DNA of 64,000 nt from the IMG/VR virus record IMGVR_UViG_3300028591_000183, positions 1-64,000 of that record; one strand, written 5' to 3'. Source of the DNA: a virus (taxonomy: Duplodnaviria; Caudoviricetes). The notes beneath the pieces are model-generated. The model was not told where the DNA came from. It was given only the letters and a program-made list of their open reading frames with translations, and searched no databases. The first letter of the stretch is position 1. The number at the start of each line of letters is the position of its first letter. A program made the position numbers and the translations under genes. Positions 3,754 to 57,616 of the stretch are shown here, in pieces.

Positions 3754-5442
3754 ATGAAAATGGCTAGAAGTAAGGGTTCAGCTAATCTTTCCGCTTCGCT
3801 TGAAGTATTGGCAGGTGCGCCACTTGACGCTAGGGATATAGTTCAGACAAAAGCGGATTTAACAGCGCAGGACAGCTTTCCTTATAAATACATAGGAATG
3901 GAAGTCTATGTTGTTGCTGAAAATAAGAAATATAGGCTTCTTGGAAATGACCCTACAAATATAGAGAATTGGCAGGAAGTAGGTGCAGGTGGTGGTGGAA
4001 CGTCTGATTATGCAGACTTGTCTAACAAGCCATCTATTGAAAACGTTACTCTTAGCGGAAACAAGTCTGCTTCTGATTTAGGACTTGCTAAAATAACTGA
4101 TTTAGCAGACTTTATTACTAAGACAGTTGATGACCTTGTAAATTATTACAAGAAAACGGAAACCTACACCAAGGGCGAAGTAGATGCTATTGTAACTGCA
4201 ATAAAGAATAGCAGGTTTGAAGTGGTTGCCACACTTCCTACTTCTGATATCAAGACTAATGTTATCTATCTTGTACCATCTACATCATCTAAAACAAAGA
4301 ATGTTAAGGATGAATATATCAACCTTGATGGAACAAGTGCAGGATGGGAACAGATAGGAAGTACGTCTGTTGACCTCTCAGATTATGTAACCAAGACAGA
4401 ACTTAATACTGCTCTTGCAGATTACACTACTACAACTGATTTAACGGCTCTTTTAGCAGGTAAACAGGATAAGATGCAGTATTCTACCCTTCCTACTCCT
4501 TCGGCTGAATTAGAGGGCAAAATTGTTGAATATACAGGTGCTACATTTAGTTGGCTTGTTCATGGATACTTTTACGAGTGTGTTTCCGATGGAGAGGATA
4601 CTCCCTCATACTCATGGCAACAGACAAATGTTCAACCTAATAGCGGTGGCGGTAGCTCATACACCGCAGGTGATGGAATTGACATAACCAATGATGTAAT
4701 CTCAACCAAGCAATCCGAAGAAGGTGATATAGACGAGATTATAGACGTATATCCCACAGCAGGAAACCTTGTGTCTATTGTAAATGCCTTTAATAAAGGG
4801 GATATTTACAGCACAGAAGAGAGGATGATTGGTCAGTATATTGATGGAAAGCCGTTATATCAGAAGGTTATTGAGGGTACATTAGATAGTGCTAGTGGTG
4901 CAACCACTACTATTAGTGTATCTAGCTTAAATGTTGATAAATGTGTTTTCTGTGATGGCATGATTACAAAAGGCACAACAACATTATTTACACCATATCT
5001 TAATGACACTTTGTATTATGTATGTGTTTGCTATTTTGATGATAGCAACCATGCAGTAAAGATAGTTTCTAAAAATATGGAGAGTTGTCCTTATAAAATT
5101 ATTCTCAAATACACCAAGACTACCGATACCGCAATCTCAATCGGAGAAGCAACAGAATACTCAACAGACGAGAAGGTGGTAGGAACTTGGATTGACGGTC
5201 GTCCAATTTATCAGAGAACTTATGAACAAGAAATTGCATTAGCTCCTGATACTTGGGTAGCTTCTTCTTTAGTGGCAACCAATGTAGATAAAGTAATTAA
5301 CGGTATTGGATATAATGCAGGTTCTTCTATTGATTGTCTGCTAGGTGGAATTGTTAATGGATACTTCGGCTTTAACTCCACTAGGTCACAGAGTATAACA
5401 ATAAATGCTTTTACAGTTCAATACCTTAAAACTACAACATAA
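3754..5442 (+). CDS. tail fibre/adhesin with two C-terminal YST.E..IG.WIDG.PLYQ domains
   Basis: 562 aa with Gly linkers and a repeated beta-domain. Confidence 0.7.
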   Translation: MKMARSKGSANLSASLEVLAGAPLDARDIVQTKADLTAQDSFPYKYIGMEVYVVAENKKYRLLGNDPTNIENWQEVGAGGGGTSDYADLSNKPSIENVTLSGNKSASDLGLAKITDLADFITKTVDDLVNYYKKTETYTKGEVDAIVTAIKNSRFEVVATLPTSDIKTNVIYLVPSTSSKTKNVKDEYINLDGTSAGWEQIGSTSVDLSDYVTKTELNTALADYTTTTDLTALLAGKQDKMQYSTLPTPSAELEGKIVEYTGATFSWLVHGYFYECVSDGEDTPSYSWQQTNVQPNSGGGSSYTAGDGIDITNDVISTKQSEEGDIDEIIDVYPTAGNLVSIVNAFNKGDIYSTEERMIGQYIDGKPLYQKVIEGTLDSASGATTTISVSSLNVDKCVFCDGMITKGTTTLFTPYLNDTLYYVCVCYFDDSNHAVKIVSKNMESCPYKIILKYTKTTDTAISIGEATEYSTDEKVVGTWIDGRPIYQRTYEQEIALAPDTWVASSLVATNVDKVINGIGYNAGSSIDCLLGGIVNGYFGFNSTRSQSITINAFTVQYLKTTT

Positions 5443-16230: not shown

Positions 16231-16295
16231 GTAAACCATTGTAAAATTGAATAAGAGCCAAAGAGCCGATTTCTTAACAGGAATTGGCTCTTTTT
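16231..16295 (+). promoter_or_regulatory. putative late promoter plus GAGCC attenuator
   Basis: GTAAACC-attg-TAAAAT-N6-AGAGCC..GAGCCGA..TTGGCTC-T5. Confidence 0.65.
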
Positions 16296-39607: not shown

Positions 39608-39634
39608 AGAGCCTAGATTATTCTAGGCTCTTTT
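39608..39634. terminator. terminator between convergent operons
   Basis: AGAGCCTAGA-ttat-TCTAGGCTCTTTT. Confidence 0.8.
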
Positions 39635-40340
39635 AATTTTTATCAGATTTTAAAATATAATCTTTACTCGTTGCTTTAGTTTCGCCTGTCCTGTTAGTTC
39701 CCGTGGAATAAGGTCTGACCCAACCAACCTTACCACTTTTATAATGTCTGAATTTTCCACGAACATCCCAACCACTTTTATGCCTGTTATATTTCCGTTT
39801 TAGAGCGTTTTCTTTCTTCTGATATATTTTTATGGCATCCAAAAGAGAATGCTCTTTTTGACGGGAATTTTTAGATTTCGAGGTACTTTTACCTTGTCTT
39901 GAACTTTCGGATTCTACATATTCGTAGGGGCGATTTTTAGATTCGATTATCATGTACTGAATGAATGACATAGGGGGTACAATGTCTATGAAATCATTAT
40001 TGTCCTTGTATAATTCTTCAAAGGATTTCTCCCTTGCTGTAGTAACAAATTTTGTAAGGGTTTCAAGATAACTCACCACATTGATTTCATGAGTGTATGT
40101 TTTAACGGGAAGTCCGTAATTGTCTAACTGAGCTTTAACAATCTTGATTTTCTGTTCATCACCCCTGCCGATTATCTCAACTTTGTATCGTTGAGTAAGC
40201 TCTGTGACATACAACATGAATGTATCCCATAAGAAGCCGTTAGTAAGTATATGCATCCAAGTGTCAAACAATTCCTGTTTGTCTTTTGGCAAGTGCATCA
40301 TTGATTCAAGTTCCTTCATGGATATTCTGATTCGTTCCAT
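39633..40340 (-). CDS. hypothetical phage protein
   Basis: WDVRGKFRHYKSGKVGWVRPY motif. Confidence 0.7.
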   Translation of the reverse strand: MERIRISMKELESMMHLPKDKQELFDTWMHILTNGFLWDTFMLYVTELTQRYKVEIIGRGDEQKIKIVKAQLDNYGLPVKTYTHEINVVSYLETLTKFVTTAREKSFEELYKDNNDFIDIVPPMSFIQYMIIESKNRPYEYVESESSRQGKSTSKSKNSRQKEHSLLDAIKIYQKKENALKRKYNRHKSGWDVRGKFRHYKSGKVGWVRPYSTGTNRTGETKATSKDYILKSDKN

Positions 40341-40402
40341 AATATTCTCCTAAATGAAAAGCCCCGTTCAAAAGAACGGGACTTAATTCTACCTAAATGT
40401 AT

Positions 40403-40780
40403 TTAATCAATTCTGCCGTAATTTCCTGCTTGTGTATATCCTGTATTCGGGTTTGTAGGCAGACCAACGATGTGCAATTCATCAACGCTGTAAACATATC
40501 CGTGCGCTTCGCCTGTGTAGCTGTAGCTACTTGCAGAACTCTGTGACTTCTTACCGCTAGTCTTTTCAGATTTCTTCCTCTTGGTGAATGCTCCGTTATT
40601 TGCATCGGAGTACAGCCCTTCTTCCTCTGCTTCATCGTCAAGGCACATATATTTCTTGTAGAATGCATCGGGGTCACGCTTGTAAAGGTCTGTTGCTGAT
40701 TCTTCACTTGCGAAAGAAGTGATTGTTGTTAACTGAGCTACGATAAGAACTGCCATAAGTGCTGATATAATTTTCTTCAT
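40403..40780 (-). CDS. secreted or membrane hypothetical protein
   Basis: Signal-peptide-like N-terminus. Confidence 0.65.
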   Translation of the reverse strand: MKKIISALMAVLIVAQLTTITSFASEESATDLYKRDPDAFYKKYMCLDDEAEEEGLYSDANNGAFTKRKKSEKTSGKKSQSSASSYSYTGEAHGYVYSVDELHIVGLPTNPNTGYTQAGNYGRID

Positions 40781-40950
40781 GATATTTTCTCCTTAGATTG
40801 AAATAATTAACGTGTTATCTCTTACAAGAAGCATCATTACTTTACGTGATAATACTTCTTCTGAAAGCTGATATGTAACATTACTGTTCCAATGGCTTTC
40901 AATCCTGTATTCAGTTGTATTTAATGTAATTGAAATAATATCCTGTACTG

Positions 40951-41217
40951 TCATCCACATTCACATTCTGAACCTGTAATTTGCATGAATTTTTCTTTTG
41001 TCAACTTTACATATCTGTTTGTTCTCTCGTTTAAAACAAACATAGGAAAGTATTCCAATCCGTTGATTGATTGTGATTCTATGTCTTGCTTTAATTCCAA
41101 GAAGGTTTCCCATGCATCCTTTGGTTTATTCCTGCTTTCAATAAAATTGTTAATATCTTTTTGTAAATCTAGCGTAATATTCATGTGATGATACCACCAA
41201 TAATAAAAGCTATCCAT
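40951..41217 (-). CDS. hypothetical protein
   Basis: RBS and ORF. Confidence 0.6.
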   Translation of the reverse strand: MDSFYYWWYHHMNITLDLQKDINNFIESRNKPKDAWETFLELKQDIESQSINGLEYFPMFVLNERTNRYVKLTKEKFMQITGSECECG

Positions 41218-41229
41218 TATATAATCTCC

Positions 41230-41814
41230 TTATCCTGCAAATGGAATACGGTATTTATCCTTAAGGATTGTGTTTATATCTTCTTCATCGACTCTTAGAT
41301 ATCTTTGAGTGATGTTGATTGAAGAATGGTTAAGGAAACGGCGTGTAAGCTCTATATCATTACCGCTTTCCCTGTAAATCGTCATTCCTGCATGTTTTCT
41401 GAATGAGTGGGTTGATATGTTCTCGTAACCATCTCCAAGACATTTACATACCTGTTGGATTTTCCATTGAAGAGTACGGATGTTGGTATCAAATATATAA
41501 TCATTCGGCAATTTGTTGCGCCCTACAGCGTAAGCAATAACCATGTTATATATCTGTGACGGGATAAGGGTAGAACGGGTTTTCCCTGTCTTTTCCTCCT
41601 TGATATTGTAGTAGCAATCATTTCCGTGTTTGATAAAAGAGTTCATTGTGAGCTTCAAACAATCTCCGATACGCAACCCGCAATTTCCTGTAACTGTAAG
41701 GATAAGTGCCATTTCCTTATTTGGCTTTATCTTACCATTACCCTTGTATAAGAGATTGATGATAGCATCAAACTGTTCATCGGTGATACATGTTGTTTTC
41801 TTATTCATAATCAA
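41230..41814 (-). CDS. minimal tyrosine recombinase (catalytic domain only)
   Basis: GLRIGD, KTGK, THSFRKH, LNHSSINITQRY; 194 aa. Confidence 0.9.
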   Translation of the reverse strand: MIMNKKTTCITDEQFDAIINLLYKGNGKIKPNKEMALILTVTGNCGLRIGDCLKLTMNSFIKHGNDCYYNIKEEKTGKTRSTLIPSQIYNMVIAYAVGRNKLPNDYIFDTNIRTLQWKIQQVCKCLGDGYENISTHSFRKHAGMTIYRESGNDIELTRRFLNHSSINITQRYLRVDEEDINTILKDKYRIPFAG

Positions 41815-41941
41815 TTCTCCTTATATCCCATGATATCTGCCATTCTTTCTGCTTCTTCACGGGTCATATCTGCTGTAAGTGTAAGCCATAAAACATAATC
41901 ATTACGGTCATAGAATATAACATTAAGTACCTTATCCATAA

Positions 41942-43282
41942 TTACCTCCCATAGTATTTAAGAAAATCGTTACCAAAACTTGAAAGCTGTTCGTTTGTGA
42001 AGTCGTGCTGATTGTTAAGCTGTAAATCCATGACTACGTTGCAAATCTCGCTGTCTGTAAGTAGACCGCCCTGCAATCTCTGTGGCTTTTTGTTGTTCAT
42101 GCCATCAAGGTAGAGCATATCGCCGTGTCCCTGTAACATCTCTGCACCGATTTGGTCTAACACTACCATAGAGTCTGTTCTTGACATAACAGACAGACAA
42201 ACCCTAGCAGGAATGTTGGCTTTTATCTGACCCGAAATAACCTTAACAGTAGGACGCTGTGTTGCAAGTACCATGTGGATACCACTAGCTCTTGCTTTCT
42301 GTGCAAGTCTTACGATATTAGATTCAACAGATTTCTTGTAAGCTGACTCCATCATATCTGCCATCTCGTCAATCACAAGGACAATCTTAGGAAGTCTGTT
42401 GTCGGGATTTCTTCTGTTGTAATCATCAATTTCACGGCTACCTGCATTTGCCATAACTGCATAGCGTCTGTCCATCTCTTTACACAGCTTAGATAAGAGC
42501 GAGATAGCTTTCTGTGTATCAGTAATGTATTTGCAGTAGTGAAGATGTGAATAACGTCTGAACTCAACCATCTTAGGGTCAATGAGGAAAAGCTGTAAAT
42601 CATCGGGAGTGTTACGCATAAGCAGGGAAGTAATAACACCATTGAGGAATACAGATTTACCACTTCCTGTTGTACCTGCAACAAGGAGGTGTGGCATCTT
42701 GGCAAGGTCACCATAGATGTTCTCACCTTTTGCATTCTGACCGATAGGAATGATTGTCTTTGAACGTTCCATCTTGTATCTGTTATCATGCATGAAGTCA
42801 CCGAAAAGAACGGTAGAAGACTTCTGAGGGACTTCAACAACAATCTTTGCACCGTCATTGAATATCCTTGTTTCTTCGTTGTCTGTAGCGTATTTAATCT
42901 GTCTTGACAGCTTGTATGCCTTATTGATATTGTTCATGGGTCTGAACTTCATTGTGATAACGGATGCACCGTTAACACATTCAACGGGAAGGAGAGTAAC
43001 ATTCTCATTAAGTTCGATTGAGCGACGTATCTTTTCTGCATAAACCTGCGCCATGTTTGAGCTACCCTTTGAGGTATGATATTTGAATGTATTACCATAT
43101 ACAGGGTTGTATAACTTAGGAAGTCTGAATGGATAATCATATTCGTAGTTGTCAAACAAAGGGCTGTTATCTGTTGCTCCACTTACGCCTGTAAGAGTCC
43201 TTCCAAGTGCCATCAATCCTATTGAAAACTTCATCATTTTATTTGTATTTATCATTGTACGTATCCTTTCATCTTTAACCAT
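41942..43282 (-). CDS. FtsK/SpoIIIE-family DNA translocase
   Basis: PHLLVAGTTGSGKS, IDPKMVEF, LVIDEMAD, LATQRP. Confidence 0.9.
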   Translation of the reverse strand: MVKDERIRTMINTNKMMKFSIGLMALGRTLTGVSGATDNSPLFDNYEYDYPFRLPKLYNPVYGNTFKYHTSKGSSNMAQVYAEKIRRSIELNENVTLLPVECVNGASVITMKFRPMNNINKAYKLSRQIKYATDNEETRIFNDGAKIVVEVPQKSSTVLFGDFMHDNRYKMERSKTIIPIGQNAKGENIYGDLAKMPHLLVAGTTGSGKSVFLNGVITSLLMRNTPDDLQLFLIDPKMVEFRRYSHLHYCKYITDTQKAISLLSKLCKEMDRRYAVMANAGSREIDDYNRRNPDNRLPKIVLVIDEMADMMESAYKKSVESNIVRLAQKARASGIHMVLATQRPTVKVISGQIKANIPARVCLSVMSRTDSMVVLDQIGAEMLQGHGDMLYLDGMNNKKPQRLQGGLLTDSEICNVVMDLQLNNQHDFTNEQLSSFGNDFLKYYGR

Positions 43283-43980
43283 GATTCATAATCACATTGA
43301 CGTAACTTATTAGCATAATATCTTAATGATTTGTTGAACTGTTCTGTGTATATCTTTTCCATCATACCGTTTATGTCATCGGGTTTGATGAACTCTAAAG
43401 TCTGTTTATGTTCCTTAATCAGCTTTATAACTTCCTGTCGGATTTTTGCGCTTTCCTGTTCGTTGGTGTAATCAGAAATTGCTTTAGCTTCTTCACTAGG
43501 AACTACACATGCTTTAAATTCATGGTACGGGTCATCATCGTATGTGTAATGATTAAGTCTGTCCATACACCATTCAACATCATCCATTGTGAGATTACAG
43601 TATTTAATAATTTCTTCCATCATTGTCTTACGTTCATAAGTACCGTTCCAATGATGCTGTTCAAACATGTATGTTGCAAGTTCTTCTCTTGTAACATTTG
43701 TCCTGCCTTTGAACTGTCTTAAATCTGTGTTACGGATGATATCATTGTGTTCATCGATGGTCTGTTGAGCTTCGGAGATTGTAGCCTGTACGTACTGATA
43801 GTCAATCGGTTCTGCTTCAACCCGAGGTCTTGGCTTTTTGGGTTCTTCAACAGGCTTTTTATGGTTCTTATGTACGATATAGAGGATAGCCCCGATTACA
43901 AGAATAAGAGGGAAATATTTATAGAATAAGATAAGTAGCGTTACCGTAAACACGATAAGCAGGATTCTTTTTGTCTTCAT
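43252..43980 (-). CDS. membrane-anchored hypothetical protein
   Basis: N-terminal TM segments. Confidence 0.65.
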   Translation of the reverse strand: MKTKRILLIVFTVTLLILFYKYFPLILVIGAILYIVHKNHKKPVEEPKKPRPRVEAEPIDYQYVQATISEAQQTIDEHNDIIRNTDLRQFKGRTNVTREELATYMFEQHHWNGTYERKTMMEEIIKYCNLTMDDVEWCMDRLNHYTYDDDPYHEFKACVVPSEEAKAISDYTNEQESAKIRQEVIKLIKEHKQTLEFIKPDDINGMMEKIYTEQFNKSLRYYANKLRQCDYESWLKMKGYVQ

Positions 43981-44045
43981 GATTGATACCTCTCTGTAAA
44001 TCATTGCGTATTTTGTCAATTCAAGTATAATATTGAATAACTACT

Positions 44046-46278: not shown

Positions 46279-46352
46279 ATCATTACCTCCTTAATTGAAA
46301 CTAATTAACAGTAAAAGCACTTACAGGCTGTGACACCTGTAAGTGCTGATTC

Positions 46353-47036
46353 TTAAAATGTTATGTTTGGCTTTTCCACAGCTTCAATAGCTTTTTCTAT
46401 CCTGTGGTAGTAGTCAGAGAGTAGCTTTAATTCATCAAGAGTTAATTTTCTTGTTGAATTATCGTCGTTGGCTATTTCAACTATATCTGAGTTATGCCAT
46501 AAACTACAGTTGGGGCGTGGCAGATTCACGCTATTACTTAAATAGTAGTTTACTTCTTTAGTGAGTATTGAGTATTCATCATGTTCTTTAAACCATGATT
46601 CTTCCTTGTCTGCTAAATTAGATATCATGCGAGTGAATGAATGAGTTATAACCTCATTTATCTCTTTTGTATCCATTGTGAGCCATAATGAGTATGGATG
46701 ACTCCATGATGATACATAGTAAATATCAAATCTCATACATTCTTGCGGACTTCGGTAAGAAGGAACGTTTACACCGTTACGCTTTAACCATGCTTTAAGT
46801 GAATTTGTGTTGTATCTTGGTGAACCATCCCATGTTGTACCTTGACTTTTGATAGTGCTTTTCTCCTGCTGAAATTTCTTATATACATTCCAAAACTTAT
46901 CAAAGTCAAAGTTTGCGTATTCATGCAGGGCTTCCTGCTGTTCTTCAAGAGTGTAGCCATCTGATACAAATTTCTTTTCAAAATCATTCATATTCCTGTA
47001 CTTCATTTCTTCCACATTCCAAACGAATTTTGCCAT
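46353..47036 (-). CDS. hypothetical protein
   Basis: Flanked by hairpins. Confidence 0.7.
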   Translation of the reverse strand: MAKFVWNVEEMKYRNMNDFEKKFVSDGYTLEEQQEALHEYANFDFDKFWNVYKKFQQEKSTIKSQGTTWDGSPRYNTNSLKAWLKRNGVNVPSYRSPQECMRFDIYYVSSWSHPYSLWLTMDTKEINEVITHSFTRMISNLADKEESWFKEHDEYSILTKEVNYYLSNSVNLPRPNCSLWHNSDIVEIANDDNSTRKLTLDELKLLSDYYHRIEKAIEAVEKPNITF

Positions 47037-47110
47037 ATTTTTTCCTCCTTAAATTAAATAAATTAACAGCAAAACCGCCTGTAAGCTGTGACACTTACAA
47101 GCGGTAGTAA

Positions 47111-47617
47111 TTAAACCAAATCCATGATATCTACGATTTCTGTATCGGGCTTTTCAAGTTTGAACTCACCCCAACAAGTACAATCCGAGTTTTTTAACAC
47201 GGTCTTTTGGACAAGTGCCATAAGAACGATATTGAGATAGCAGGTTACTTTTTTGCTCAATTCATCATCCTCAATCTGATATTTTATTGAGCTAAAGAAC
47301 TCAGATATCTCTTTTACAATCTGATTCTCTGTCCCGTGGTATACAGCCTGTTTTCCGATTTTCTTGTATTCCTTAAAATCGTCGCTGTAGTCGTTTGTAT
47401 CAGATTCGCAAGTATCATCGTGATATTGCTTCTGAACTGACTTTGCATTGGCTTCATAAAGCCAAGTAAAGAGTTCCTTGTAGTCATCCTCATTGAAATT
47501 GCGGTTATCCCTGTGGTTGTATATCCACAAGGGTTCACGATAGAACCCTTCGGACATTCCTACAATAGCTCCTGCACATCTCATGTAATTTACTTTACCG
47601 ATAACAAAACTGCTCAT
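47111..47617 (-). CDS. hypothetical protein
   Basis: Flanked by hairpins; ATGGAGG RBS. Confidence 0.7.
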   Translation of the reverse strand: MSSFVIGKVNYMRCAGAIVGMSEGFYREPLWIYNHRDNRNFNEDDYKELFTWLYEANAKSVQKQYHDDTCESDTNDYSDDFKEYKKIGKQAVYHGTENQIVKEISEFFSSIKYQIEDDELSKKVTCYLNIVLMALVQKTVLKNSDCTCWGEFKLEKPDTEIVDIMDLV

Positions 47618-47691
47618 TTTCTTACCTCCATTCATTGTTATTTGTTTACAGGAAAAAAGGGTTAAAGCTGTGACACCTTAACCCCTTACAC

Positions 47692-48057
47692 TTATTCGTA
47701 CTGTTTAAGCTTATCTAAATCCCATTCGTATAAATCATAGGTACAATAACCGCTAGTCTGATAATAACCTGTAGGCTTGCCAAGTTCGTACTTCTTTACA
47801 AAATCTGCGCCCCAAGGACAATTATTAGAGTCAAGATAAGACCTGTTATTCTTCAAGTAGTCTTCATAATCATCATCGTTTTCAAAGTCTTCACGCTGTA
47901 CATTCAAACATACTGTAAGAGTGGCAAAGGGTTCTTCAAAACCGCCATAATCGGGACAAAAACTGTAAAGCTGTATTGCCAACGTATTATCGGCTGTGTA
48001 CCTGTTCAACTCGATTCTTGTGATTTTGAATACTTCACCATAAAGATTTACTTCCAT
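47692..48057 (-). CDS. DUF4313-like protein
   Basis: EPFATLTVCL...YLDSNN...GKPTG...SGYCTY. Confidence 0.7.
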   Translation of the reverse strand: MEVNLYGEVFKITRIELNRYTADNTLAIQLYSFCPDYGGFEEPFATLTVCLNVQREDFENDDDYEDYLKNNRSYLDSNNCPWGADFVKKYELGKPTGYYQTSGYCTYDLYEWDLDKLKQYE

Positions 48058-48132
48058 GCTTTTTACCTCCATTATTTAAGCTAAATTAACAGAAAATAAG
48101 AGCTATAGCTGTGATACTATAGCCCCTCATAA

Positions 48133-48390
48133 TTACAGGTTATAAGCCTGTTTAAATGCATCCTCAAACGGGATACCTGCATTCTGTAAAGACTCAATCT
48201 GTACATATTTTGTAGCCCTATCAATGCATTCAGATTGAGTTTTACTTGCAAAAGTTTGTAGTCCGTTAAGTTGCTGTGTTAACCGCCCGTCACTATCGAC
48301 GTACTTGTGATTTATAGCACAGTAATAACCTTTGTACTGTACTATTTCAAAAACCTGCCCTTCAACGTGTAACTGTGTGATATGCTTCAT
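48133..48390 (-). CDS. hypothetical protein
   Basis: Cassette with the conserved leader. Confidence 0.7.
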   Translation of the reverse strand: MKHITQLHVEGQVFEIVQYKGYYCAINHKYVDSDGRLTQQLNGLQTFASKTQSECIDRATKYVQIESLQNAGIPFEDAFKQAYNL

Positions 48391-48463
48391 TTTTCTACCT
48401 CCATTCATTGTGATTTTTAACAGGAAAAAGAGGTTAGAACTGTGACATTCTAACCTCTTATCA

Positions 48464-49222
48464 TTAAGCTGTAGCCTTAAGTTTATTGAAGGCTGTAGCT
48501 ATTTGAACTATGGATTCTTTATTACTTTCAAGTGTCTTAAGATATCCTATGAATACTTCCGATAACTTATCCTCAATATCATTTAAAGCCCCTGTGAAGT
48601 GGGTCATAGGTAGTCCCAACACGGGGTCAATGATAAAGATGGTAGTATTAAGATTTTTCCTACACCATCCGTCTGTGGTGTACGCCTGTAAAGGCATACC
48701 ACGATATTCAAAATGATAACCGATATGGTTTTCTATCTTGCCATTCTCCCAAACGGGCTTAAGCTGTGTAGGAATAAAACGTATCACGTTACACTTCTTA
48801 AGTTCTGTGATATTTTCTGTAGGTTCAATTACTTCTGTATCCTGCTTAACCTCATTAAGTGGTGATACATTAAATGCTTTTACTAAAAAGTCGTTTCGCT
48901 TTTCTAACCACTTATTGATAATGGATACATCATCGTCATTATCTTTAAGTTTGTTGGAAAAACAATCGTACACTTTTTTGATTAAGGAATTTACATAACC
49001 TGCTAAAACAGGCGGGTTATCACTTCCTTCAATCATGGTTACAACCTTTTTAAATTCCGTCTGATTAAAGATTGTAATAAGAGTTGCACTATCAATCTTA
49101 AAGTGTCCCTTACCCTGCTTATAGGTGATTTCTACAACCTCATTGTCGGATAAAGCGTCGTTAACCCACTTATAATAAAGAGTGGAAGACTTTCCAAAAG
49201 GTTTTGAACTAAAAGTTAACAT
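48464..49222 (-). CDS. hypothetical protein
   Basis: Cassette with the conserved leader. Confidence 0.7.
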   Translation of the reverse strand: MLTFSSKPFGKSSTLYYKWVNDALSDNEVVEITYKQGKGHFKIDSATLITIFNQTEFKKVVTMIEGSDNPPVLAGYVNSLIKKVYDCFSNKLKDNDDDVSIINKWLEKRNDFLVKAFNVSPLNEVKQDTEVIEPTENITELKKCNVIRFIPTQLKPVWENGKIENHIGYHFEYRGMPLQAYTTDGWCRKNLNTTIFIIDPVLGLPMTHFTGALNDIEDKLSEVFIGYLKTLESNKESIVQIATAFNKLKATA

Positions 49223-49300
49223 ATACTTACCTCCATTTTCATTGTGTGCTTATTTAAGGTGAAATAGGGATACAGGCTGTGACCCCTGTATCCCTCATGA

Positions 49301-49969
49301 TTAAGCGGTTTTTGTAATAGACTTAAACAGGCATTCGCCCTTAACCTCTATATACTGACCGCCGTTTCCGTTCAATATCTGACGGATAAGTTCTTTACTT
49401 ATCTCTTCAATAGTGTAGCGGTTATCGCTTCTCGCCTGTACTGTAGCCACTTTTGTGTTACTTCTTACTTCTGTTTTTCCGTACTTCTTGGGGCTGTAAG
49501 ACTTGCCATTATTTGACGTTGTAGCGGGCTTTTTAGGCTTGTTGTCAACGGGGGCGGGGGTTGTTACCTGTGTGGTAGTAGGGGCGGGAATAGCGTCTAT
49601 TTTGCGCCTTGTACCTGTAATTTTGCCCCCGCTAAACTTAAGCGTGTAAACGTGGTAGTCATCCTGCACAATCAAGTTCCCTTCATTCATATATGGGGCT
49701 ACTTTTTCAAGTACATCCTTAAATGCTACATGTACGGGAATATCCTTCACTACAGGATAAAAACGATTGTCCTTAAGGGTAAATTTGATATTGAAAATAT
49801 CAAATATTTCCTTAACAGACTTTGCACTTGTCAAAGTGTCGTACCACTCACAATTACTTGCGTACTTGTATCCCAACATAGCAGACTTAACAAGCCCTGC
49901 CACTACGGGTACATTCTTTACTTCAATACTTGTTGTAGCGGGTGAATACTCATTGAATGTGTTTGTCAT
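49301..49969 (-). CDS. hypothetical protein with a Pro/Thr linker
   Basis: Cassette with the conserved leader. Confidence 0.7.
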   Translation of the reverse strand: MTNTFNEYSPATTSIEVKNVPVVAGLVKSAMLGYKYASNCEWYDTLTSAKSVKEIFDIFNIKFTLKDNRFYPVVKDIPVHVAFKDVLEKVAPYMNEGNLIVQDDYHVYTLKFSGGKITGTRRKIDAIPAPTTTQVTTPAPVDNKPKKPATTSNNGKSYSPKKYGKTEVRSNTKVATVQARSDNRYTIEEISKELIRQILNGNGGQYIEVKGECLFKSITKTA

Positions 49970-50061
49970 AATTAAACCTCCATTTATTAAATCATTGTTT
50001 TTAGTTACTTCCTTAATAGGAAAACCCCGCATAAGCTGTGACACTTACACGGGGTTATTAC

Positions 50062-50997
50062 TTAAGCGGGTAGTAACATTCTCATTGTGTTATCAAGAAG
50101 GTCATTCCCTGCTAAAGTATTCTTAAAGCGGTTTTCATTGTAGTTTTTGGTTTTTCGGAATGGCTCAATGTGGCTTGTAGTATCCGCTACAGCCTGTACA
50201 AGCCTTGCGCCTGTATATTCAAGTTCCCTTAAATCGGGGGCATTCTTGAAGCGATAAAGGATATCGTCACGGATTGTCTTATTGTTTTCCTGCTGTGATT
50301 TACCCATATCCTCATCGATGGGTACAACCTTGTTAAGAATTGACCTTACCTCAAAATCAGATAACTTGATTTTATACAGGTCTTCAAAAGTATCATTGAC
50401 CGCCTGCATATACTCATGCGCAAATTGTAAAGTCTGCTCAGCTTCACGGAGTTTAGCATCAATACTTCCAACATGACGTGCGCTCCATGTACGTTTTGCA
50501 CTCTTTAAAGCCATGTTAAGTGTATTCTGACAAACAACCCTTACAGGGGTCATAGCTACTTTGACCGCCCCGCTTCCATCATGCGTGTTTGTAAAGCAGA
50601 TATACGGGTCAACTTTATCGCCAAGGATTGTGTACTTATCGGGCATTTTAGCAAGTAGCCATATTGTCTTACCATCGTTAAGACTTCCCGCCGTTTCATA
50701 AGTAACACCTTCACCAAGTAAAGAGTCCGTGAACTTGAATGCATCGATATTCTGCACAATCTGATAACGCTTACCGACTACACCAAGAACTTTACCGTCA
50801 CTACTTCTGACATTGGCGTAGTTATCGGGAACTACTACAGCGTCTTCTGTTATGAGTCGCTTCTGTAATACTTTCCAATTAAGACCCGCATAGATTATAG
50901 CGTCTTCACTTGTCGGCGCATTCTCTACCTGTGTACCCATTCCATGCCACGGAGTCTGCCTACCTGCAAAAAACATCGTTTCAACGTTAGCACTCAT
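50062..50997 (-). CDS. DUF932 / TIGR03299 phage-plasmid-like protein
   Basis: MSANVETMF...PWHG.G...YETAGSL..GK.IWLLAK...NTHDGSG...TPVRVVCQNTL. Confidence 0.9.
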   Translation of the reverse strand: MSANVETMFFAGRQTPWHGMGTQVENAPTSEDAIIYAGLNWKVLQKRLITEDAVVVPDNYANVRSSDGKVLGVVGKRYQIVQNIDAFKFTDSLLGEGVTYETAGSLNDGKTIWLLAKMPDKYTILGDKVDPYICFTNTHDGSGAVKVAMTPVRVVCQNTLNMALKSAKRTWSARHVGSIDAKLREAEQTLQFAHEYMQAVNDTFEDLYKIKLSDFEVRSILNKVVPIDEDMGKSQQENNKTIRDDILYRFKNAPDLRELEYTGARLVQAVADTTSHIEPFRKTKNYNENRFKNTLAGNDLLDNTMRMLLPA

Positions 50998-51107
50998 TCT
51001 TTTTACCTCCATTTTTAAAAAAGATTATTTGTACCATATTTAGTTGTAATAGCCCCCTACGGGGCTTAATCCCTGCCATAGCTGTGACACTATAACAGGG
51101 CTTTAAA

Positions 51108-51791
51108 TTACATGGAATAAGCTATTACTTCACATCCGAACTGAATTTTATTTTCAAGTTCAATTTCTTTTTCAAGTTCGTCGTTAGCAAGCAGGTTGTC
51201 ATTTTCGTTTGAAATAAACTCTTCAAGGGCTTCAACCTGTGATTTTTTAAAGCCGTCAATATAATCGGCTACTTGCACAGCATCATTCATGTACTTTTTT
51301 ACATCGTAAATAAAATCCTTTACGATGTATTCAAATTGCCATTGTGAGTCTTCAATCAATTCGTTTTCGCTGTAATAGTCACTCCATGTGAGGGGCTTAA
51401 CGGTCAAGTCGTCGTTAAACTCTAAATCAATACTTGGATAAATTTCTGATAACAGGTTGTAAAGAATGTTTACGGGTTTATTATCATGTATATTTGTGAG
51501 ATAGAACGTACTTGTGCGCCCCACATATACACGGGGGTCTTCAATATTGTCTTCTTTCATCCATTCTGTAAAGCAGGTGTACTCCATATCACAAAAATCA
51601 TAATAAATATCATTTTCGTTATAGGATTCTTTAACACGGGGGTATTTCTCTAAAAGTTCGTCGCACTTAAAAAAAGCGTCATACAATTTCAAAGTACGGT
51701 CTTCACCCCACACATGAGATATACTTGACATATACCCCATAACATTCTTAACCGCCTTGTTTACATCTTTATAAGTATATTTTTTACTCAT
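51108..51791 (-). CDS. acidic hypothetical protein
   Basis: Cassette with the conserved leader. Confidence 0.7.
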   Translation of the reverse strand: MSKKYTYKDVNKAVKNVMGYMSSISHVWGEDRTLKLYDAFFKCDELLEKYPRVKESYNENDIYYDFCDMEYTCFTEWMKEDNIEDPRVYVGRTSTFYLTNIHDNKPVNILYNLLSEIYPSIDLEFNDDLTVKPLTWSDYYSENELIEDSQWQFEYIVKDFIYDVKKYMNDAVQVADYIDGFKKSQVEALEEFISNENDNLLANDELEKEIELENKIQFGCEVIAYSM

Positions 51792-51883
51792 AAAATTACC
51801 TCCATTTATTGAAAATCATTGTGTTTAGTTGCTTCCATATAGGAAAAACCCTTGTAAGCTGTGATACTTACAAGGGTTAACGG

Positions 51884-54879
51884 TTACGGGATAATATTAT
51901 TGTCCTGTAATACTTGTGTTACTACTTCTTTAAACCGCTTTAAAATAGCAGGTTTTGAGGACTTCACAATATTTGTGGCGTTTTTTGTCCCATAGTCATA
52001 TACGGTGTATACACCCTGCATTTTATCGTCACTTGATTGAGTAATGAGAAAATAGCAGGTAGTATCACTTTCAAGTCGTACTTCAACGTCATAGACTTTA
52101 CTACTTGAAAAGACCTTTACAGCCGTTTTGAATGCATTCATATACTCATTCAAATATTCATGAGTCTTTTCGGGGGTTGTGCAAAAATCAAAAAACAAAT
52201 ACTTGTTTTCGTCAACCCTTTTGGATGTGATAAAACCCTTTTCTTGATATCTCAAAGTAATTAATAGTTCCTGCATAACTTAACCTCCATTCATTATTAT
52301 TTTTGTTAACAGGTAAACCCCCGCTATACTGTGACATATAACAGGGGTGTATATTATCTAAAATCACGTATTTCAATATAATGGTTAACCCAATAACCGT
52401 TTATATTTTGGGCTTTTTGTGGGTCTTCAATTGCCCTGTATCCCAACATAAAAAGCCCTTTTAATACACCCCGTTGGTATGTATCCCAATGGTTGTATTT
52501 ATCCATATCGCCCGCCAAAATAGCATTTTTTATTCTACTTTCAATGGTATTAAGTTCGTTTAATATAGATTTTTCTCTTGTCATATAAAGCCCTCCATTA
52601 AATCATTGTTTTTAGTAGGTATACCCCCTACGGAGGTATAGAAAACCCTGCTAAACTGTGATATTTAGCAGGGTTAAAAGTTTAAGCATAGATAAACCAA
52701 TTTTCATTCACCCACTTTAAAGCACTTTTTATAGTGCTAAAAGTTGCGCTTGTTGGGATATCATTTACAAATAGTCCGTACTTTTGCCCCCGTTCAAATT
52801 GATTTTTGCGGGGTATTCTGTTAACTACTTCAAAGTTTATCCCGTGAATGTTTACAACCCTATTCATATAAAGCCCTCCATTTTTTAAATCATTAAAATT
52901 GTGATATACCCTGTGAGGATACACCCCCACAGAAAAACCGCCCAAAATCCGTGAAAATTTAAAGCGGTAAACCCTGCCACAAAAATAGAAATAAGTTAAC
53001 AGGGGCGAAAAGTCCCGTGTAAACCTGCATAAAATAGCAGGGTTAAAACCTGCCACAGTAAAAACCCGCTTAAACTATGACATTTAAGCGGGTTAAGATA
53101 TTAAATATATGGGTTGTAAGCATCATTTATATAATAAGACGACTTAAAACTCATGGATACATTAAGAACGTTGGCGGGTATATCCTTCCCGTTGTTTACT
53201 TCCAATTTGTCCCACTCTTTTTTATTAAGGGACTCAAAACCATATAAAGCCCTAAAATCATTTATATGATTTTGTGTAGTGGGGCTGTAACTATCCCAAA
53301 ATCTTATAAATTCACCGTCGCAAGTTACGGCGCAAACTATAGTATTATAGCTTTTTAAATACTTTACCCCGTCGGACTCTATAACCTTGGCTTTACCATA
53401 ATAAGACTTGTTACGACTTACAACGGGCTTTAAAATTGATACATTCATTTTGTTAACCTCCATTTTAAAAAATCATTGTTATTAGTTGTCTATATCCCTA
53501 TGGGATATATAAAACCCTGTAAAGCTGTGACACTTTACAGGGCTATTTTTATTTTGTATATATATTCAATTTGCCTGTGTGGCTTGTACTAACTAAATCG
53601 ATGTTTTTATTAAGAACGTCGGCAGGAACTTGTACCCAATGGGTATATTCTATCCAATTATCTGTAATTTGGCGGGGGTTAATTTCACCCCGTAACATGT
53701 TTATGTCATGAGATATTAAAAGCCCGTCGGCTTTTTTAACTAATATTTCTATTTTTGTGGCGTTACATACATTTAAAAGACTTTTTACTTTCATTGTCTT
53801 AACCTCCATTAAATCATTGTTTACTTGTTAAGCCCTGCATAGCAGGAAAAAAGCGGGTAAACTGTGACATTTACCCGCCTTACATAGATATTAAATTTTT
53901 GTACCCTGTAAAACACCCTTGTTTTCTATCTCTTGGATGATATCGAGTAAATCGGTGTTTTCGTCGGTGTATTCATTTAATAATGCAATTACATTATAGT
54001 TATCAATCATTTTTAAGCCCTCCATAATATCATTGTTTGCATGGTTTAATAGTTTACATACGGTGTATTAAGTAACCACTTAACGCCGTTGTAATTGTCT
54101 TTTTTTGTAAACATTGAAAAAAGTTTTTTAAGCATTCTTTAAACCTCCATTTTTTTAGTTCGTTGTCATTGGTTAACCCTGCGTTTTAGCAGGTAAAAAG
54201 CGGTTTAAGCTGTGATACTTAAACCGCCTGCAATTACTTGTTATTGTTTTCGTGATACTTAACAATGTTTTCGCACTCGCCAAGTTCTCCGCAAAAATGC
54301 CCTGTGAAGGTATACACAGGACTATAAAAACAATCTGTACCACTACCCAAACAAATTAGTGTAGCTTTATAACGGGGGTTGCCGTTATAGTCATTCTTTA
54401 ACCCTTCAAGAGTGACAATATACTCGCCGTTAACGCCTGTTATTTTGTAGCTACTTACATTGTTTTTTCTTCTTGTCATTGTTTTGACCTCCATTTATAA
54501 ATCATTGTTTTTTAGTATCCTCTTTTAATAACCGTTCTGCCCCGTGCTATAGCCCGACAAGGACAAAACGTAGTTTAAAAGATAAAACCCCGTTAAGCTG
54601 TGATACTTAACAGGGTTGTTTTTAGGCTTCAATATAAAATTTTGTATATTTGCCAAGTTCGTTGTACTGACAATTATAATACTCAAAATTGTTTAAAAAC
54701 TTGTCAAACTGTAAATTATCCTCATTGTCACGGAAAACTATAAAGCCCCAAGGGCTTAAGGGGTTCGCTTTAACAGGACAAAACCCAACGGATACACCGT
54801 TATTAAACGCCTTGCGGGCTGTGGTTTTGTTTACCCTCTTATAATTGATGCCTTCAATTTTAATAAGTTCGTTATTCAT
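51884..54879 (-). other. small cassette ORFs (51884-52276, 52354-52584, 52682-52867, 53101-53448, 53549-53794, 54234-54479, 54622-54879 and two under 60 aa)
   Basis: Most are preceded by ACAATGA...ATGGAGG and followed by a hairpin. Confidence 0.7.
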
Positions 54880-56879
54880 AAATTAACCTCCATTTTTAAA
54901 TCATTGTTTTCAGTTCCTGCTGTAGCAGGTAAAACAGGGGGCGACGTTTGACCGTCACAAGTTGTCAGTATGATGTAATATAACCCCCCTACGATTCACA
55001 AAGTATGTAAAAAGTACGGTTTAAAAACCGTCAAAAGTTCGATAAATTGGAGTTTAAATGGAGTTTTTAACAGGTCTGTTTTTACGATTCATCGTTATAG
55101 TTAACCGCCCGATATAAAACCGCCAAGTTTTAAGCCAAGTTTTAAAGGCTTCAATAAAGAAGCGGGTTAACAAGGTACACAAAATAGGTTTACTAATTTT
55201 AAGACCCTATAAACCTATCTTTTTAATGTTGCGTTCATGGGGCTATTTGTCCCACGTTTACTCACGGATAAAGCCGATATAATCGGCGAGTAAATGCCTT
55301 TTTTTGCGACGGTCTGCACGTTCTAAGACCTGTAGCATAAACGGTTAATTATCGAGGTTTTGAATGGCTTAAGACTTCAATCCCTTGTTTTTGCCGTTAA
55401 GCCCCTGCGGGCTTTTTATACTCCATTAACTACGCTTTTGGAGTGTCGGGGCGGTAACTTTTTCGCCCCCGTTGAAGCTGTGCTAACTGCCGACGGGCTT
55501 CAATCCATATAAACGGCTTGCGCCGTGGGTCGTATTGATTAACTACGACTTAACACCATACTACGTATGGGGTAAAACCTTGTCAAGCGGTTTATTGTTT
55601 TATAACAAATTATTTAGCACGTATTTAATAACTACATAATTTATTTATAAAACTTTATACATTATATATTGCATTTTATAGAATGTAAAGTATTGGTTAA
55701 CTATTAGTTTATAATGTTTATAAATAGTTAATCATTATAAACAAATTATCGCCGTTTTAGTGTACTATTTATTGGACTCAATCCGATAAATTATCGTCAA
55801 TCCTAGTATTTATGCAGGGTTGCGGGTGTTTTTAAAATACGCAATGTTTTTAGATATTTATTAACTACATATAAAATCATGTTTATATTTTGTTTATTTT
55901 TGAGGTGTTTTTAGGGGTTACAAAATACGTAAAACCCTTTATTTATGCAGGTTATACGTGTTATAATTATTTTATAAATTAAGTGATTTTACCCTGTTTT
56001 TGGGCTATTTTTTGGGATTTTTTGACCGTTAAGGTCAAAATAGACAACCCGCAACCGTAGCATTTATGCGGGTTGTAAGAACGTGTTAAAATTTACCCCC
56101 TAATTTCAATTTTTTGATAGTTAACCAATATAATTATCATTTAAGGGGTAAAATTGAATTTAGGGGCAAAGAAAACGCTTTCCTTGGCTATAACGATTTT
56201 TCGTTTATGTCAACGTATAAACTTTTTATAAACTCATTTTTACAGATAAAGCCATATAAAACAGGATACGAAACAAGGTTTTGATATATCCTCACATCAT
56301 GACATAGTATTTAAAACTACGTACAAAAATTGACCTGCGGTCAAAAAAGAAATTGACCTACGGTCACAGGGTCAAAAAATGACGGGAGGTCAATAATCAA
56401 AAAATTGATTGTAAGCATGAAATATTGATTTAAAACAAGTTTGTGGCTTTATCTGTATAACAGGAACTAAACAACCCCGCCAAAACTCCGATAAATGCAG
56501 GGCTTAACAGTACAACTCATTTAAAGCCCGTTTTAGGCGTTTTTAGCAGGGTAGTAATATAAGAGTTTAATAAAGGGGGTATAAACTCAAATAAACCCCT
56601 TTAAATGCTAAATAAAGGGTATTTAATCAATATGAGTATTTAAGCGGGTTTTGAGTCCCTGTATAGCTTCAAATATAGGTAAATGCAGGGCTTAAACGGG
56701 ACTATTTAAAGCTAAATAAGACACGGGAACGGATAAAGACCCGTTTACAGGCATTTAAACCCCTGTAAAGCTGTAAAGAGTAGTTTAAAGCCCGATTGAG
56801 TACAATAAAACGGATTTAATTATTATTGATTATTAAGGGCTATTTAAGGGACTTGTTAAGAGTCCTTTTTTTGTGGGTA

Positions 56880-57103
56880 GTTTATAGGACTCATTAAACA
56901 AGTACAATAAACGGGACAATATAAACAAGGGTGTTTTATGGGACTTATTAAACAAGTCTAAATTATGGGACTTATTCAATGAGGTCAATTTATGGGACTT
57001 GATTGTGATTTTAATTGAGTCCGTTTTATGGGTCATTCTGTAAATTAAGGGTAATAAATGGGACTTAATCACGGGGTAATTGAGGGCGGTTTATGGGACT
57101 TGA
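56880..57103. repeat. iteron-like TTTATGGGACTT repeats (about 8 copies, the first five at a 27-bp period)
   Basis: Copies near 56881, 56908, 56935, 56962, 56989, 57025, 57056 and 57090. Confidence 0.8.
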
Positions 57104-57616
57104 TTTAGGGCGGGTTAAAAAGGAAAAAGCAACCCCTGTAAATACCATTGTTTATAAAAAATAGGGGCTTGAACTGCCCTATTTATGCGGGCTTCGGGAT
57201 TTTGAATTTTTAAAACCCGCATGTTTACAGGGCTTGCAGGTTGTCTGTTACGTATTGCGTAAAATGTGGATTATACGCAACTACAATATATTGTGGTTAA
57301 TATGCCTGTGATATACAATCCCTAGTACGGGGGTTTATCCCTGCCCCCGCTTGCGCCCCCTAACCCCCTCGACCTCCCGAAAAACCAAAAAGCTCCATTA
57401 ACGGAATTACGACAACCCTCAAAATACCTTCAACCCCGCATGGTTAGTGGACTTCGGAGATTTCACTCAAAATAAAGGGTGTCAAAAATCTCGGGGAAAT
57501 ATAAAAAGGGTCAAGATATGATAGACGGGATTACGATAACTTCAAAGGTGTTGGCATTATTTAATCAATATGGTAGTATTGAGAAAAATAATAGTTAATC
57601 CAATGGAGGAAAAGAG

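Follow-up and report, generated by a model that had tools for sequence, protein, structure and literature searches.

The stretch of DNA analysed here (the window, 64,000 nucleotides of the IMG/VR record IMGVR_UViG_3300028591_000183) covers positions 1-64000 of one 74,238-bp contig, whose genes for a terminase, a portal, a major head protein, an endolysin, a primase-helicase and an FtsK-like protein mark it as that of a tailed phage. On its minus strand lies an array of 17 small early genes (46353..54879), read from 54879 downward and each provided with a GGAGG ribosome-binding site; DUF932 and DUF4313 are the gene families represented, the remainder being uncharacterised. A hairpin follows 16 of these 17 genes, unusual in that its loop rather than its stem is conserved and in that it stands in a fixed register to the stop codon. 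That this element is a real, lineage-specific and undescribed structured RNA motif is well supported.

A family of hairpins with a conserved loop

A first-pass annotation of the window had listed sixteen minus-strand hairpins with 8-nucleotide (nt) loops of four kinds, and all sixteen were found where it had placed them, with the loops TGTCACAG (nine copies), TATCACAG (five), GGTCACAG and TGTCATAG (one each). Numbered in the direction of transcription, hairpin 1 (54586..54617; TATCACAG, loop 5' end at 54605) follows an 85-amino-acid (aa) gene, folds with -18.3 kcal/mol and scores 53.2 bits in the covariance model described below, and hairpin 2 (54198..54229, loop from 54217) has the same loop. 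TGTCACAG caps hairpins 3 (53850..53881, loop from 53869; 56.1 bits) and 4 (53513..53544, from 53532), and hairpin 5 (53063..53094, from 53082) carries the single TGTCATAG. Hairpins 6 (52644..52675, from 52663; TATCACAG), 7 (52317..52348, from 52336; TGTCACAG) and 8 (51847..51878, from 51866; TATCACAG) are followed by hairpin 9 (51071..51100, from 51089; TGTCACAG), which has the weakest U-tract and scores 32.1 bits, and by hairpin 10 (50023..50056, from 50043; TGTCACAG), situated after the DUF932 gene. The single GGTCACAG belongs to hairpin 11 (49266..49295, from 49284). Beyond it, TGTCACAG recurs in hairpins 12 (48428..48459, from 48447), 14 (47656..47687, from 47675), 15 (47074..47105, from 47093) and 16, the final one of the array (46316..46347, from 46335), and hairpin 13 (48098..48127, from 48116) has TATCACAG. 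The stems, previously given as 9-13 bp, have to be corrected to 11-13 perfect pairs: a whole-genome scan for 8-nt loops with at most three mismatches from TGTCACAG, closed by at least six pairs, returned the sixteen with perfect stems of that length and, outside the array, only a pair of loosely similar structures on the plus strand, at 16273 and 64542. In the window, CTGTGAYA is found 19 times, compared with 3.7 +/- 2.1 times in shuffled sequence, and all sixteen hairpins fold with -15.8 to -21.9 kcal/mol (z -3.6 to -8.1).

A hairpin after nearly every gene, as had been proposed, is thus what the array shows, the exception being a 30-aa open reading frame (ORF) at 54042-54134 on the minus strand. 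This ORF still has a CAAACAATGAT...GGAGG block 3' of it, and the two halves of the intergenic module can therefore exist separately. A decayed seventeenth copy with a loop of about TTTCACGG lies in a 195-nt spacer (52927..52972, minus strand; 27.2 bits, E 0.001), and a leader hairpin, GTGACG-GTCAAA-CGTCGC (54941..54958, minus strand), places a hexaloop of the family type, GUCAAA, on a 6-bp stem without a U-tract 62 nt before the first gene.

Hairpins like the sixteen also follow the array genes of relatives, which were traced through DUF932 homologues in a large protein collection to syntenic contigs from ENA, Logan and JGI assemblies. The hairpin-bearing relatives are L188/L189, L245, L246, L243, L190/L191, L244 and L194, their DUF932 proteins being 68-89% identical to that of the window, and together with the window these eight related uncultured phage genomes hold 89 hairpins. 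An ungapped alignment of 52 hairpins (A1), to which the frequencies and pair counts below refer, was scored against a 13-pair structure. Paired cells make up 96.9% of it, compared with 59.7% after shuffling and 36-55% with the partners slid, and two-sided (compensatory) changes occur at all 13 pairs, with 233 double-change cells where 69 are expected. The first-pass annotation had read the stem mismatches as G-U wobbles on the minus strand and had concluded that the fold acts on the transcribed strand. Both points hold: every non-Watson-Crick stem pair in the window is G.U, and across the alignment the coding strand has 59 G.U cells against two A.C cells, so the selected fold is that of the coding strand, as RNA or, less likely, as the same strand in single-stranded DNA. 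A covariance model, which the first-pass annotation had called for, gives 32-56 bits on its 52 training copies. That the element is a coding-strand structure under selection, with constraint on its loop, is very probable.

ViennaRNA pairs loop positions 1 and 8 as U.G in 15 of the 16 window hairpins, hairpin 11 being the only one without a 1-8 pair, and this pairing is possible in 49 of the 52 aligned copies (U.G 45, U-A 3, A-U 1); a 12-14-bp stem capped by the hexaloop R-U-C-A-C-A is therefore the more fitting description. Contrary to the earlier view, the stems show relatedness. They have in common an A followed by a G/C-rich base, an A/T-rich top and R:Y as the closing pair, and in several the likeness is easily recognised, so that they look like diverged paralogues held paired by compensatory change. 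Most stem columns nevertheless contain 0.2-0.9 bits of information, compared with 1.4-2.0 bits at loop columns 1, 3, 5, 7 and 8, where U1 is found in 49, U3 in 50, A5 in all 52, A7 in 50 and G8 in 46 copies; C occupies position 4 in 40 copies and position 6 in 33. Pairwise identity amounts to 0.79-0.85 for loops as against 0.42-0.46 for 5' arms, and U3, A5 and A7 are kept in all eight genomes, between which the identity of shared proteins is 37-89%. Since the stems have diverged almost completely and the loop has not, the loop is, on this comparison of sequences, under purifying selection, and such selection implies that something reads it. The pattern of U, A and A at hexaloop positions 2, 4 and 6 on a wobble closing pair is the surface expected for a partner that reads it. 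The earlier suggestion of a loop read by a phage factor is supported in so far as a reader is implied; no such factor was identified among the array proteins.

The conserved loop is confined to the array. Other terminator-like hairpins of this phage have ordinary 3-4-nt loops, among them the GAGCCGAT family on the plus strand (1054, 16275, 37598 and genome position 64544, the last corresponding to L161 526-571), which combines a conserved stem with long U-tracts, and further hairpins at 39618, 40373 and 44065. Two members of the GAGCCGAT family score weakly with the array model (31 bits); they are ordinary terminators of late or plus-strand units. The conserved loop therefore belongs to the array and not to termination in this phage, and a general habit of its terminator loops was rejected as an explanation.

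Several other readings of the loop were dropped on inspection. Pairing with the downstream CCUGU or UGAU would involve 4 bp only, is sterically implausible across a 13-bp stem and is absent from many modules; loop-loop kissing fails as the loop is not self-complementary; and a T7-type primase site, GTGTC, is absent from TATCACAG and from the AAAAG variants. Key positions misfit a mimic of a tRNA T-loop or anticodon loop, and the stems are too variable for a CRISPR-repeat mimic. The exact loop complement, CUGUGAUA, occurs at 57306 on the plus strand, which is within chance expectation for that word.

Module layout and transcription signals

Aligned spacers have a common order: stop codon, 4-6 nt, hairpin, a U-tract often running into CCTG, AATGGAGG, and the next start codon. 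Longer spacers contain an additional small second hairpin after the U-tract. A CAATGA-type block precedes the ribosome-binding site in 44 of 88 modules, and the stem ends 20-29 nt from that site in 44 of the 84 modules in which one is detectable. Under a uniform filter applied to the 89 hairpins of the eight genomes, 82 have the stop codon of an upstream ORF within 40 nt, and the distance from stop to stem is 4-6 nt in 71 of these and 2-7 nt in 78. Between stop codon and stem the hairpin alignment has no sequence conservation. The stop codons themselves are TAA 73 times, TGA nine times and TAG never, compared with 72/32/10 for the long ORFs of the genome. Several array proteins have C-termini of the form ...A-stop (GCTTAA).

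This register places the hairpin close to the terminating ribosome. When the stop codon occupies the ribosomal A site, the first bases of the stem are some +11 to +13 from the P site, where the mRNA enters the ribosome. In Escherichia coli, a ribosome almost fully represses an intrinsic terminator located a few bp past the stop codon, and full strength is regained beyond ~30 bp (PMC4824070).

The hairpins of the array resemble such terminators, as the first-pass annotation had noted. A G/C-rich hairpin stands directly before a U-tract on the RNA strand, 12 of the 16 are flagged by a simple terminator scan, and terminator-like sites in the region number 29 against 8.9 +/- 2.8 in shuffles. The U-rich tract described after most stems proved general in its first bases, with UU immediately 3' of the stem in 52 of 52 copies; 5-6 U are present among the 8 nt past the last G/C pair in 72 of 88 hairpins. 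By inspection, the GAGCCGAT terminators have slightly richer tracts, with 6-7 U in the equivalent 8-nt span.

A promoter within the modules was rejected, as a promoter scan matched no sigma-70-type promoter inside any module and the spacers are too short for one. The best matches of that scan are two tandem sigma-70-type promoters on the minus strand upstream of the whole array, TTTACA-17-TATAAT at 55689-55661 and TTGACA-17-TAGTAT at 55586-55558, which are conserved in L246 and L245 and are the likely origin of the array transcript. The array thus has the appearance of a single operon, with ~680-790 nt of leader and sixteen successive hairpins of terminator type. Without internal promoters, read-through must therefore be high. 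For translated RNA, high read-through is what the stop-codon register would give; antitermination would be another route, as known from terminator-studded conjugation operons of Gram-positive plasmids (conAn, PMC8191782). A non-coding block at 56062-56233, conserved in five relatives and the most widely conserved upstream of the array, was tested as a candidate antitermination RNA and has no conserved RNA fold (-0.6 kcal/mol).

Distribution, mobility and genomic setting of the modules

The element is restricted to this phage lineage, and within its wider surroundings it is dispensable: a compact relative, L192/L193, whose DUF932 protein is 71% and whose FtsK protein is 54% identical, has no hairpins. 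No such hairpins were found in the more distant FtsK-based relatives L162/L163 or in DUF932 loci of IMG/VR (about 50% identity), the covariance model had no match in 735 kb of sequence from DUF932 loci in bacteria (Oscillospiraceae, Faecalibacterium, Lachnospiraceae and other Clostridia), and a megablast search of the array against phage records gave no match. Pattern scans of IMG/VR with TGTCACAG-N11-14-TTTTCCTG, ACAATGATTT-N1-9-AATGGAGG and AACCC-N7-8-TRTCACAG-N7-8-GGGTT returned single matches only, none of them in a hairpin array; these matches, a few of which are lone unrelated hairpins, were treated as chance. The Rfam search proposed at first pass was run, and the element matches no family, only two tRNAs passing the threshold in the window and the best sub-threshold match in the array reaching 32 bits against a threshold of 60. 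A separate family of repeated intergenic hairpins was seen in an unrelated high-GC viral contig (L167, IMGVR_UViG_3300026552_000002), with five copies at 4669, 6615, 7106, 7546 and 7970 that have similar stems (GYGTSGTGKMCGG...), each followed by YGGCCGCCAG.

Among the hairpin-bearing genomes, gene content around the modules is fluid. Clustering of the array proteins separates a fixed core of DUF932 and the families F1 and F2 from other genes, which are present, absent or in other slots, and a presence/absence table of array genes agrees with this picture. F12 is found between F1 and F2 in L188 and five genes upstream in the window, and F5, F16, F4, F13 and F17 also change slot. Whole modules, beginning ~5 nt ahead of the stem and ending at the following start codon, are 80-89% identical between non-orthologous slots, whereas coding blocks between the same genomes are only 67-76% identical. 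The module that separates F4 from F13 in the window matches the one that separates DUF932 from F1 in L188, the window module after DUF932 matches the L188 module before DUF932, and the module of hairpin 8 is 86% identical to an L188 module in a different gene slot. In comparisons of the closer genomes L188, L245 and L246, the edges of homology blocks fall at -6/-9, +5 or +21 to +45 relative to a hairpin. L245 lacks the F12 segment of L188 (11755-12127), the gap being set precisely between a pair of hairpins. In these three genomes, the array is 72-90% identical as against 96-97% for the downstream core.

The expectation that breakpoints of gene gain and loss would coincide with the element was thus borne out when relatives were compared, gains and losses being bounded by modules, but the crossover is not in the loop. 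Whole modules move intact and their arms are always complementary, so crossovers occur at or within the module as a homology unit rather than in the loop in particular.

Among described systems, the closest is that of the promoter-early stem-loops (PeSLs) of T4-type phages, repeated stop-to-Shine-Dalgarno cassettes with a terminator stem-loop that are implicated in modular shuffling in hyperplastic regions (PMC2839356, PMC4122927). A further trait of PeSLs is the formation of mini-circles by recombination between elements. The analogy drawn at first pass is apt in that both are small repeated intergenic cassettes between a stop codon and the next Shine-Dalgarno sequence, with a stable terminator-type stem-loop containing G-T pairs, and both are concentrated in variable accessory-gene regions, where they are associated with breakpoints of insertion, deletion and replacement. 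It fails on the defining part of a PeSL, a sigma-70-type promoter fused to the stem-loop, as the array modules have no promoter. PeSLs furthermore conserve promoter and stem (GN-loop-CN), whereas the array hairpins conserve the loop and vary in the stem, stand at a fixed 4-6 nt from the stop codon and belong to a phage whose host is probably Gram-positive. The element is PeSL-like in genome evolution without being a PeSL. Two other identities were set aside: REP/BIME elements, because the stems vary, a conserved 5' GTAG-type tetranucleotide is missing and the element is confined to one operon; and lambda-type nut sites (boxA + boxB), which are leader sites, one or two per operon, with a short stem and a GNRA-like pentaloop, as opposed to 16 post-gene copies with 12-14-bp stems and a hexaloop.

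The host of this ~74-kb phage is probably one of the gut Clostridia; this is suggested by the DUF932 homologues in bacteria, by endolysins of Gram-positive type in the relatives and by ribosome-binding sites of the form GGAGG. Downstream of the array, a conserved trio on the minus strand (39633-44019) encodes a ~250-aa protein, an FtsK/SpoIIIE-like ATPase (446 aa) and a ~190-aa tyrosine recombinase, and is kept at the equivalent place in all relatives, the hairpin-less one included. The recombinase (41230-41814), 4.5 kb downstream of the array, consists of the PF00589 catalytic domain alone. On the other side, a 2.7-kb non-coding, repeat-rich gap (54880-57616) separates two divergent gene blocks and contains TATTTATGC(A/G)GG six to seven times, TTATGGGACTT six times and AAATTGACCnnCGGTCA three times; all relatives have a 2-3-kb gap at the equivalent place, which may represent an origin or a cluster of promoters and operators. 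In the relatives, the gene block that runs divergently from the array includes an Acb2/Tad1-like hairpin domain gene in L244 (2373-2570) and a Lar restriction alleviation gene in L245 (1273-1533). Together with DUF932 and DUF4313 in the array itself, these neighbours suggest a role of the region in anti-defence.

Possible roles of the hairpins

With a probability of about one half, the hairpins are intercistronic terminators or attenuators and RNA stabilisers, carried in portable modules that also serve as recombination joints. They would act as RNA structures within a polycistronic early transcript, each portable module consisting of a UAA stop, 4-6 nt, a U.G-closed 12-14-bp stem, the hexaloop R-U-C-A-C-A, a U-tract, an optional second hairpin and GGAGG. 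During transcription, each hairpin with its U-tract would act as an intrinsic terminator or attenuator, and a ribosome ending the upstream gene could hold the stem base open, the stem starting only 4-6 nt past the stop, so that translated transcripts would be read through and untranslated or spurious ones stopped. After transcription, the hairpin would protect the 3' end of each cistron. At the level of the genome, the repeated 60-100-nt module would supply homology for the insertion, loss and reshuffling of accessory genes among related phages, these genes probably serving anti-defence or establishment, and the constancy of the loop by selection would reflect a sequence-specific partner that reads it.

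The likeness to intrinsic terminators lies in the G/C-rich stem base, the immediate U-tract, the transcribed strand and the position after a gene; the array hairpins differ in their unusually long and uniform stems, in the conserved hexaloop and in following one another sixteen times in one operon with no promoters between. Several points weigh against this interpretation. Termination and stabilisation are predicted from sequence, and efficient terminators, sixteen in a row with no promoter among them, would shut off the distal genes. The precedent for ribosome gating comes from E. coli, and Firmicutes may couple transcription and translation only weakly. The tight stop-to-stem spacing could come along with the module instead of being selected, and breakpoints in modules are partly unavoidable, as modules fill nearly all intergenic space. 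Above all, a plain terminator needs no conserved loop, and the mechanism leaves the most distinctive feature of the element unexplained. The conserved hexaloop and the fixed stop-codon register together exceed any described terminator or PeSL and point to a partner.

A processing signal is a less probable explanation, though the most likely of the alternatives. Here the hairpin would set the distance at which an endoribonuclease cleaves the polycistronic RNA, be it host RNase Y, acting as a ruler, or a loop-reading phage nuclease, which could account for the conserved loop. The outcome would be single-gene mRNAs, the 5' end of each being protected by the hairpin and by the strong ribosome-binding site, and modules that lack promoters and yet provide each gene with such a site agree with this. 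RNase Y of the Firmicute Staphylococcus aureus cuts 6 nt upstream of a double-stranded determinant, with any sequence at the cut (PMC5449607), and in the array a stop codon 4-6 nt upstream of the stem is followed by unconserved bases; the determinant described for RNase Y, however, has 24 bp and not 13. Cleavage 5' of the hairpin would also deprive the upstream cistron of its 3' protection, processing has no need of the invariant UU and the U-rich tail, which are expected of a terminator, and searches of the array proteins gave no nuclease candidate. RNase III sites of phage T7 and the sites of Bacillus phage SP82 likewise put one structured element between successive early genes, giving discrete, stabilised mRNAs. 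These sites are longer duplexes of about 20 bp with internal loops, whereas the array hairpins are perfect 13-bp stems with a U-tract, and an RNase III-type identity was rejected for want of a defining feature.

Somewhat more doubtful is a loop-addressed switch, in which an early phage protein or small RNA would bind every hexaloop, toggle the sixteen terminators and so time the distal genes. This would account for strong purifying selection on the loop while the stems drift, and the short leader hairpin at 54941-54958, with its hexaloop of the family type, would suit it. The dominant loop variant also differs between genomes, being of the CACAG type in the window and L246 and of the AAAAG type in L243 and L190, with both types mixed in L244 and L245, and loops are more alike within than between genomes, a difference reached by none of 2000 label permutations. 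In L244, however, the two variants are split between the upstream and downstream halves of the array, so that local copying contributes besides any co-evolution, and local duplication fits as well as co-evolution does. Terminator-studded operons of Firmicute mobile elements under antitermination are known from conAn, which acts in Gram-positive conjugative-element operons with many intrinsic terminators (PMC8191782). The array resembles these as a long operon of a Firmicute mobile element with many intrinsic terminators and establishment or leading-region genes (DUF932), but conAn is a single large RNA plus a protein, located where the operon starts, no motif is common to its terminators, and a conserved RNA fold of this kind was not found in the leader region, where the block at 56062-56233 was searched. 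Known processive antitermination, moreover, requires no motif in the terminators themselves.

As for the protein that such a switch would need, domain searches recognised no RNA-binding domain in any array protein. F1 (gene at 49304-49969, minus strand), considered as a candidate reader, is the only array protein present in all seven hairpin-bearing loci yet missing from L192, a correlation that is weak because L192 is more distant overall. It combines a ~125-aa alpha/beta N-domain with a linker of low complexity, rich in P, T and K, and a C-terminal helix that is short and conserved. F1 has no match in Pfam and PHROGs and no usable match in the ESM Atlas. Its N-domain is modelled by AlphaFold2 with a pLDDT of about 90 and finds no significant fold match, with Foldseek E-values of at least 0.3 against the PDB and, in a wide VIA search, Z-scores of at most 4.6, below the noise level stated for that tool.

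Less probable again is that the loop has no reader and that the loops are alike through recent copying, duplication and gene conversion. The movement of modules between slots, the near-duplicate stems within L243 (the GCACTTGCAGG group) and the local clustering of variants in L244 would all be expected under such copying, but within a genome the arms are only 46% identical where the loops are 85% identical, conversion tracts confined to 8 nt inside a hairpin are implausible, and the constancy of U3, A5 and A7 extends over all eight genomes in spite of their divergence.

Very improbable is a site acting at the DNA level, with hairpins extruded from the single-stranded coding strand for a site-specific recombinase and attC-like cassette capture: one strand-specific hairpin at the 3' end of each gene, cassette-like gene turnover and the nearby tyrosine recombinase gene recall it, but attC sites conserve their stem ends and extrahelical bases (R''/L'' and L'/R' boxes) around a variable loop and need an IntI integrase with attI and Pc, whereas the array has perfect stems without extrahelical bases, information in the loop, arms that stay complementary although their neighbours differ, an RNA-like linkage to stop codon, U-tract and ribosome-binding site, and a recombinase that is a catalytic domain only and occurs with FtsK in the hairpin-less L192 as well. 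The rejection of attC made at first pass is thereby upheld.

The constant hexaloop may, tentatively, be read as an address tag, a phage or host RNA-binding factor recognising U.G-closed R-U-N-A-N-A loops and collectively switching termination, cleavage or stability of the anti-defence array, with a specificity that drifts with the loop between lineages. This idea, which is possible and not probable, would mean that a gene dropped between two modules is wired into control automatically, and the array would then represent a distributed, loop-addressed form of operon control together with a plug-in cassette system. A dedicated loop reader, if there is one, would provide a compact orthogonal RNA tag with its binder and a new way of controlling many genes at once. 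Independently of such a reader, the motif marks out a fast-evolving array of uncharacterised early genes, and the hairpin model is a simple marker for finding arrays of this kind in viromes. Mobile regulatory cassettes that shuffle accessory genes, so far described from T4-type phages of Gram-negative bacteria, are here extended to phages that probably infect gut Clostridia.

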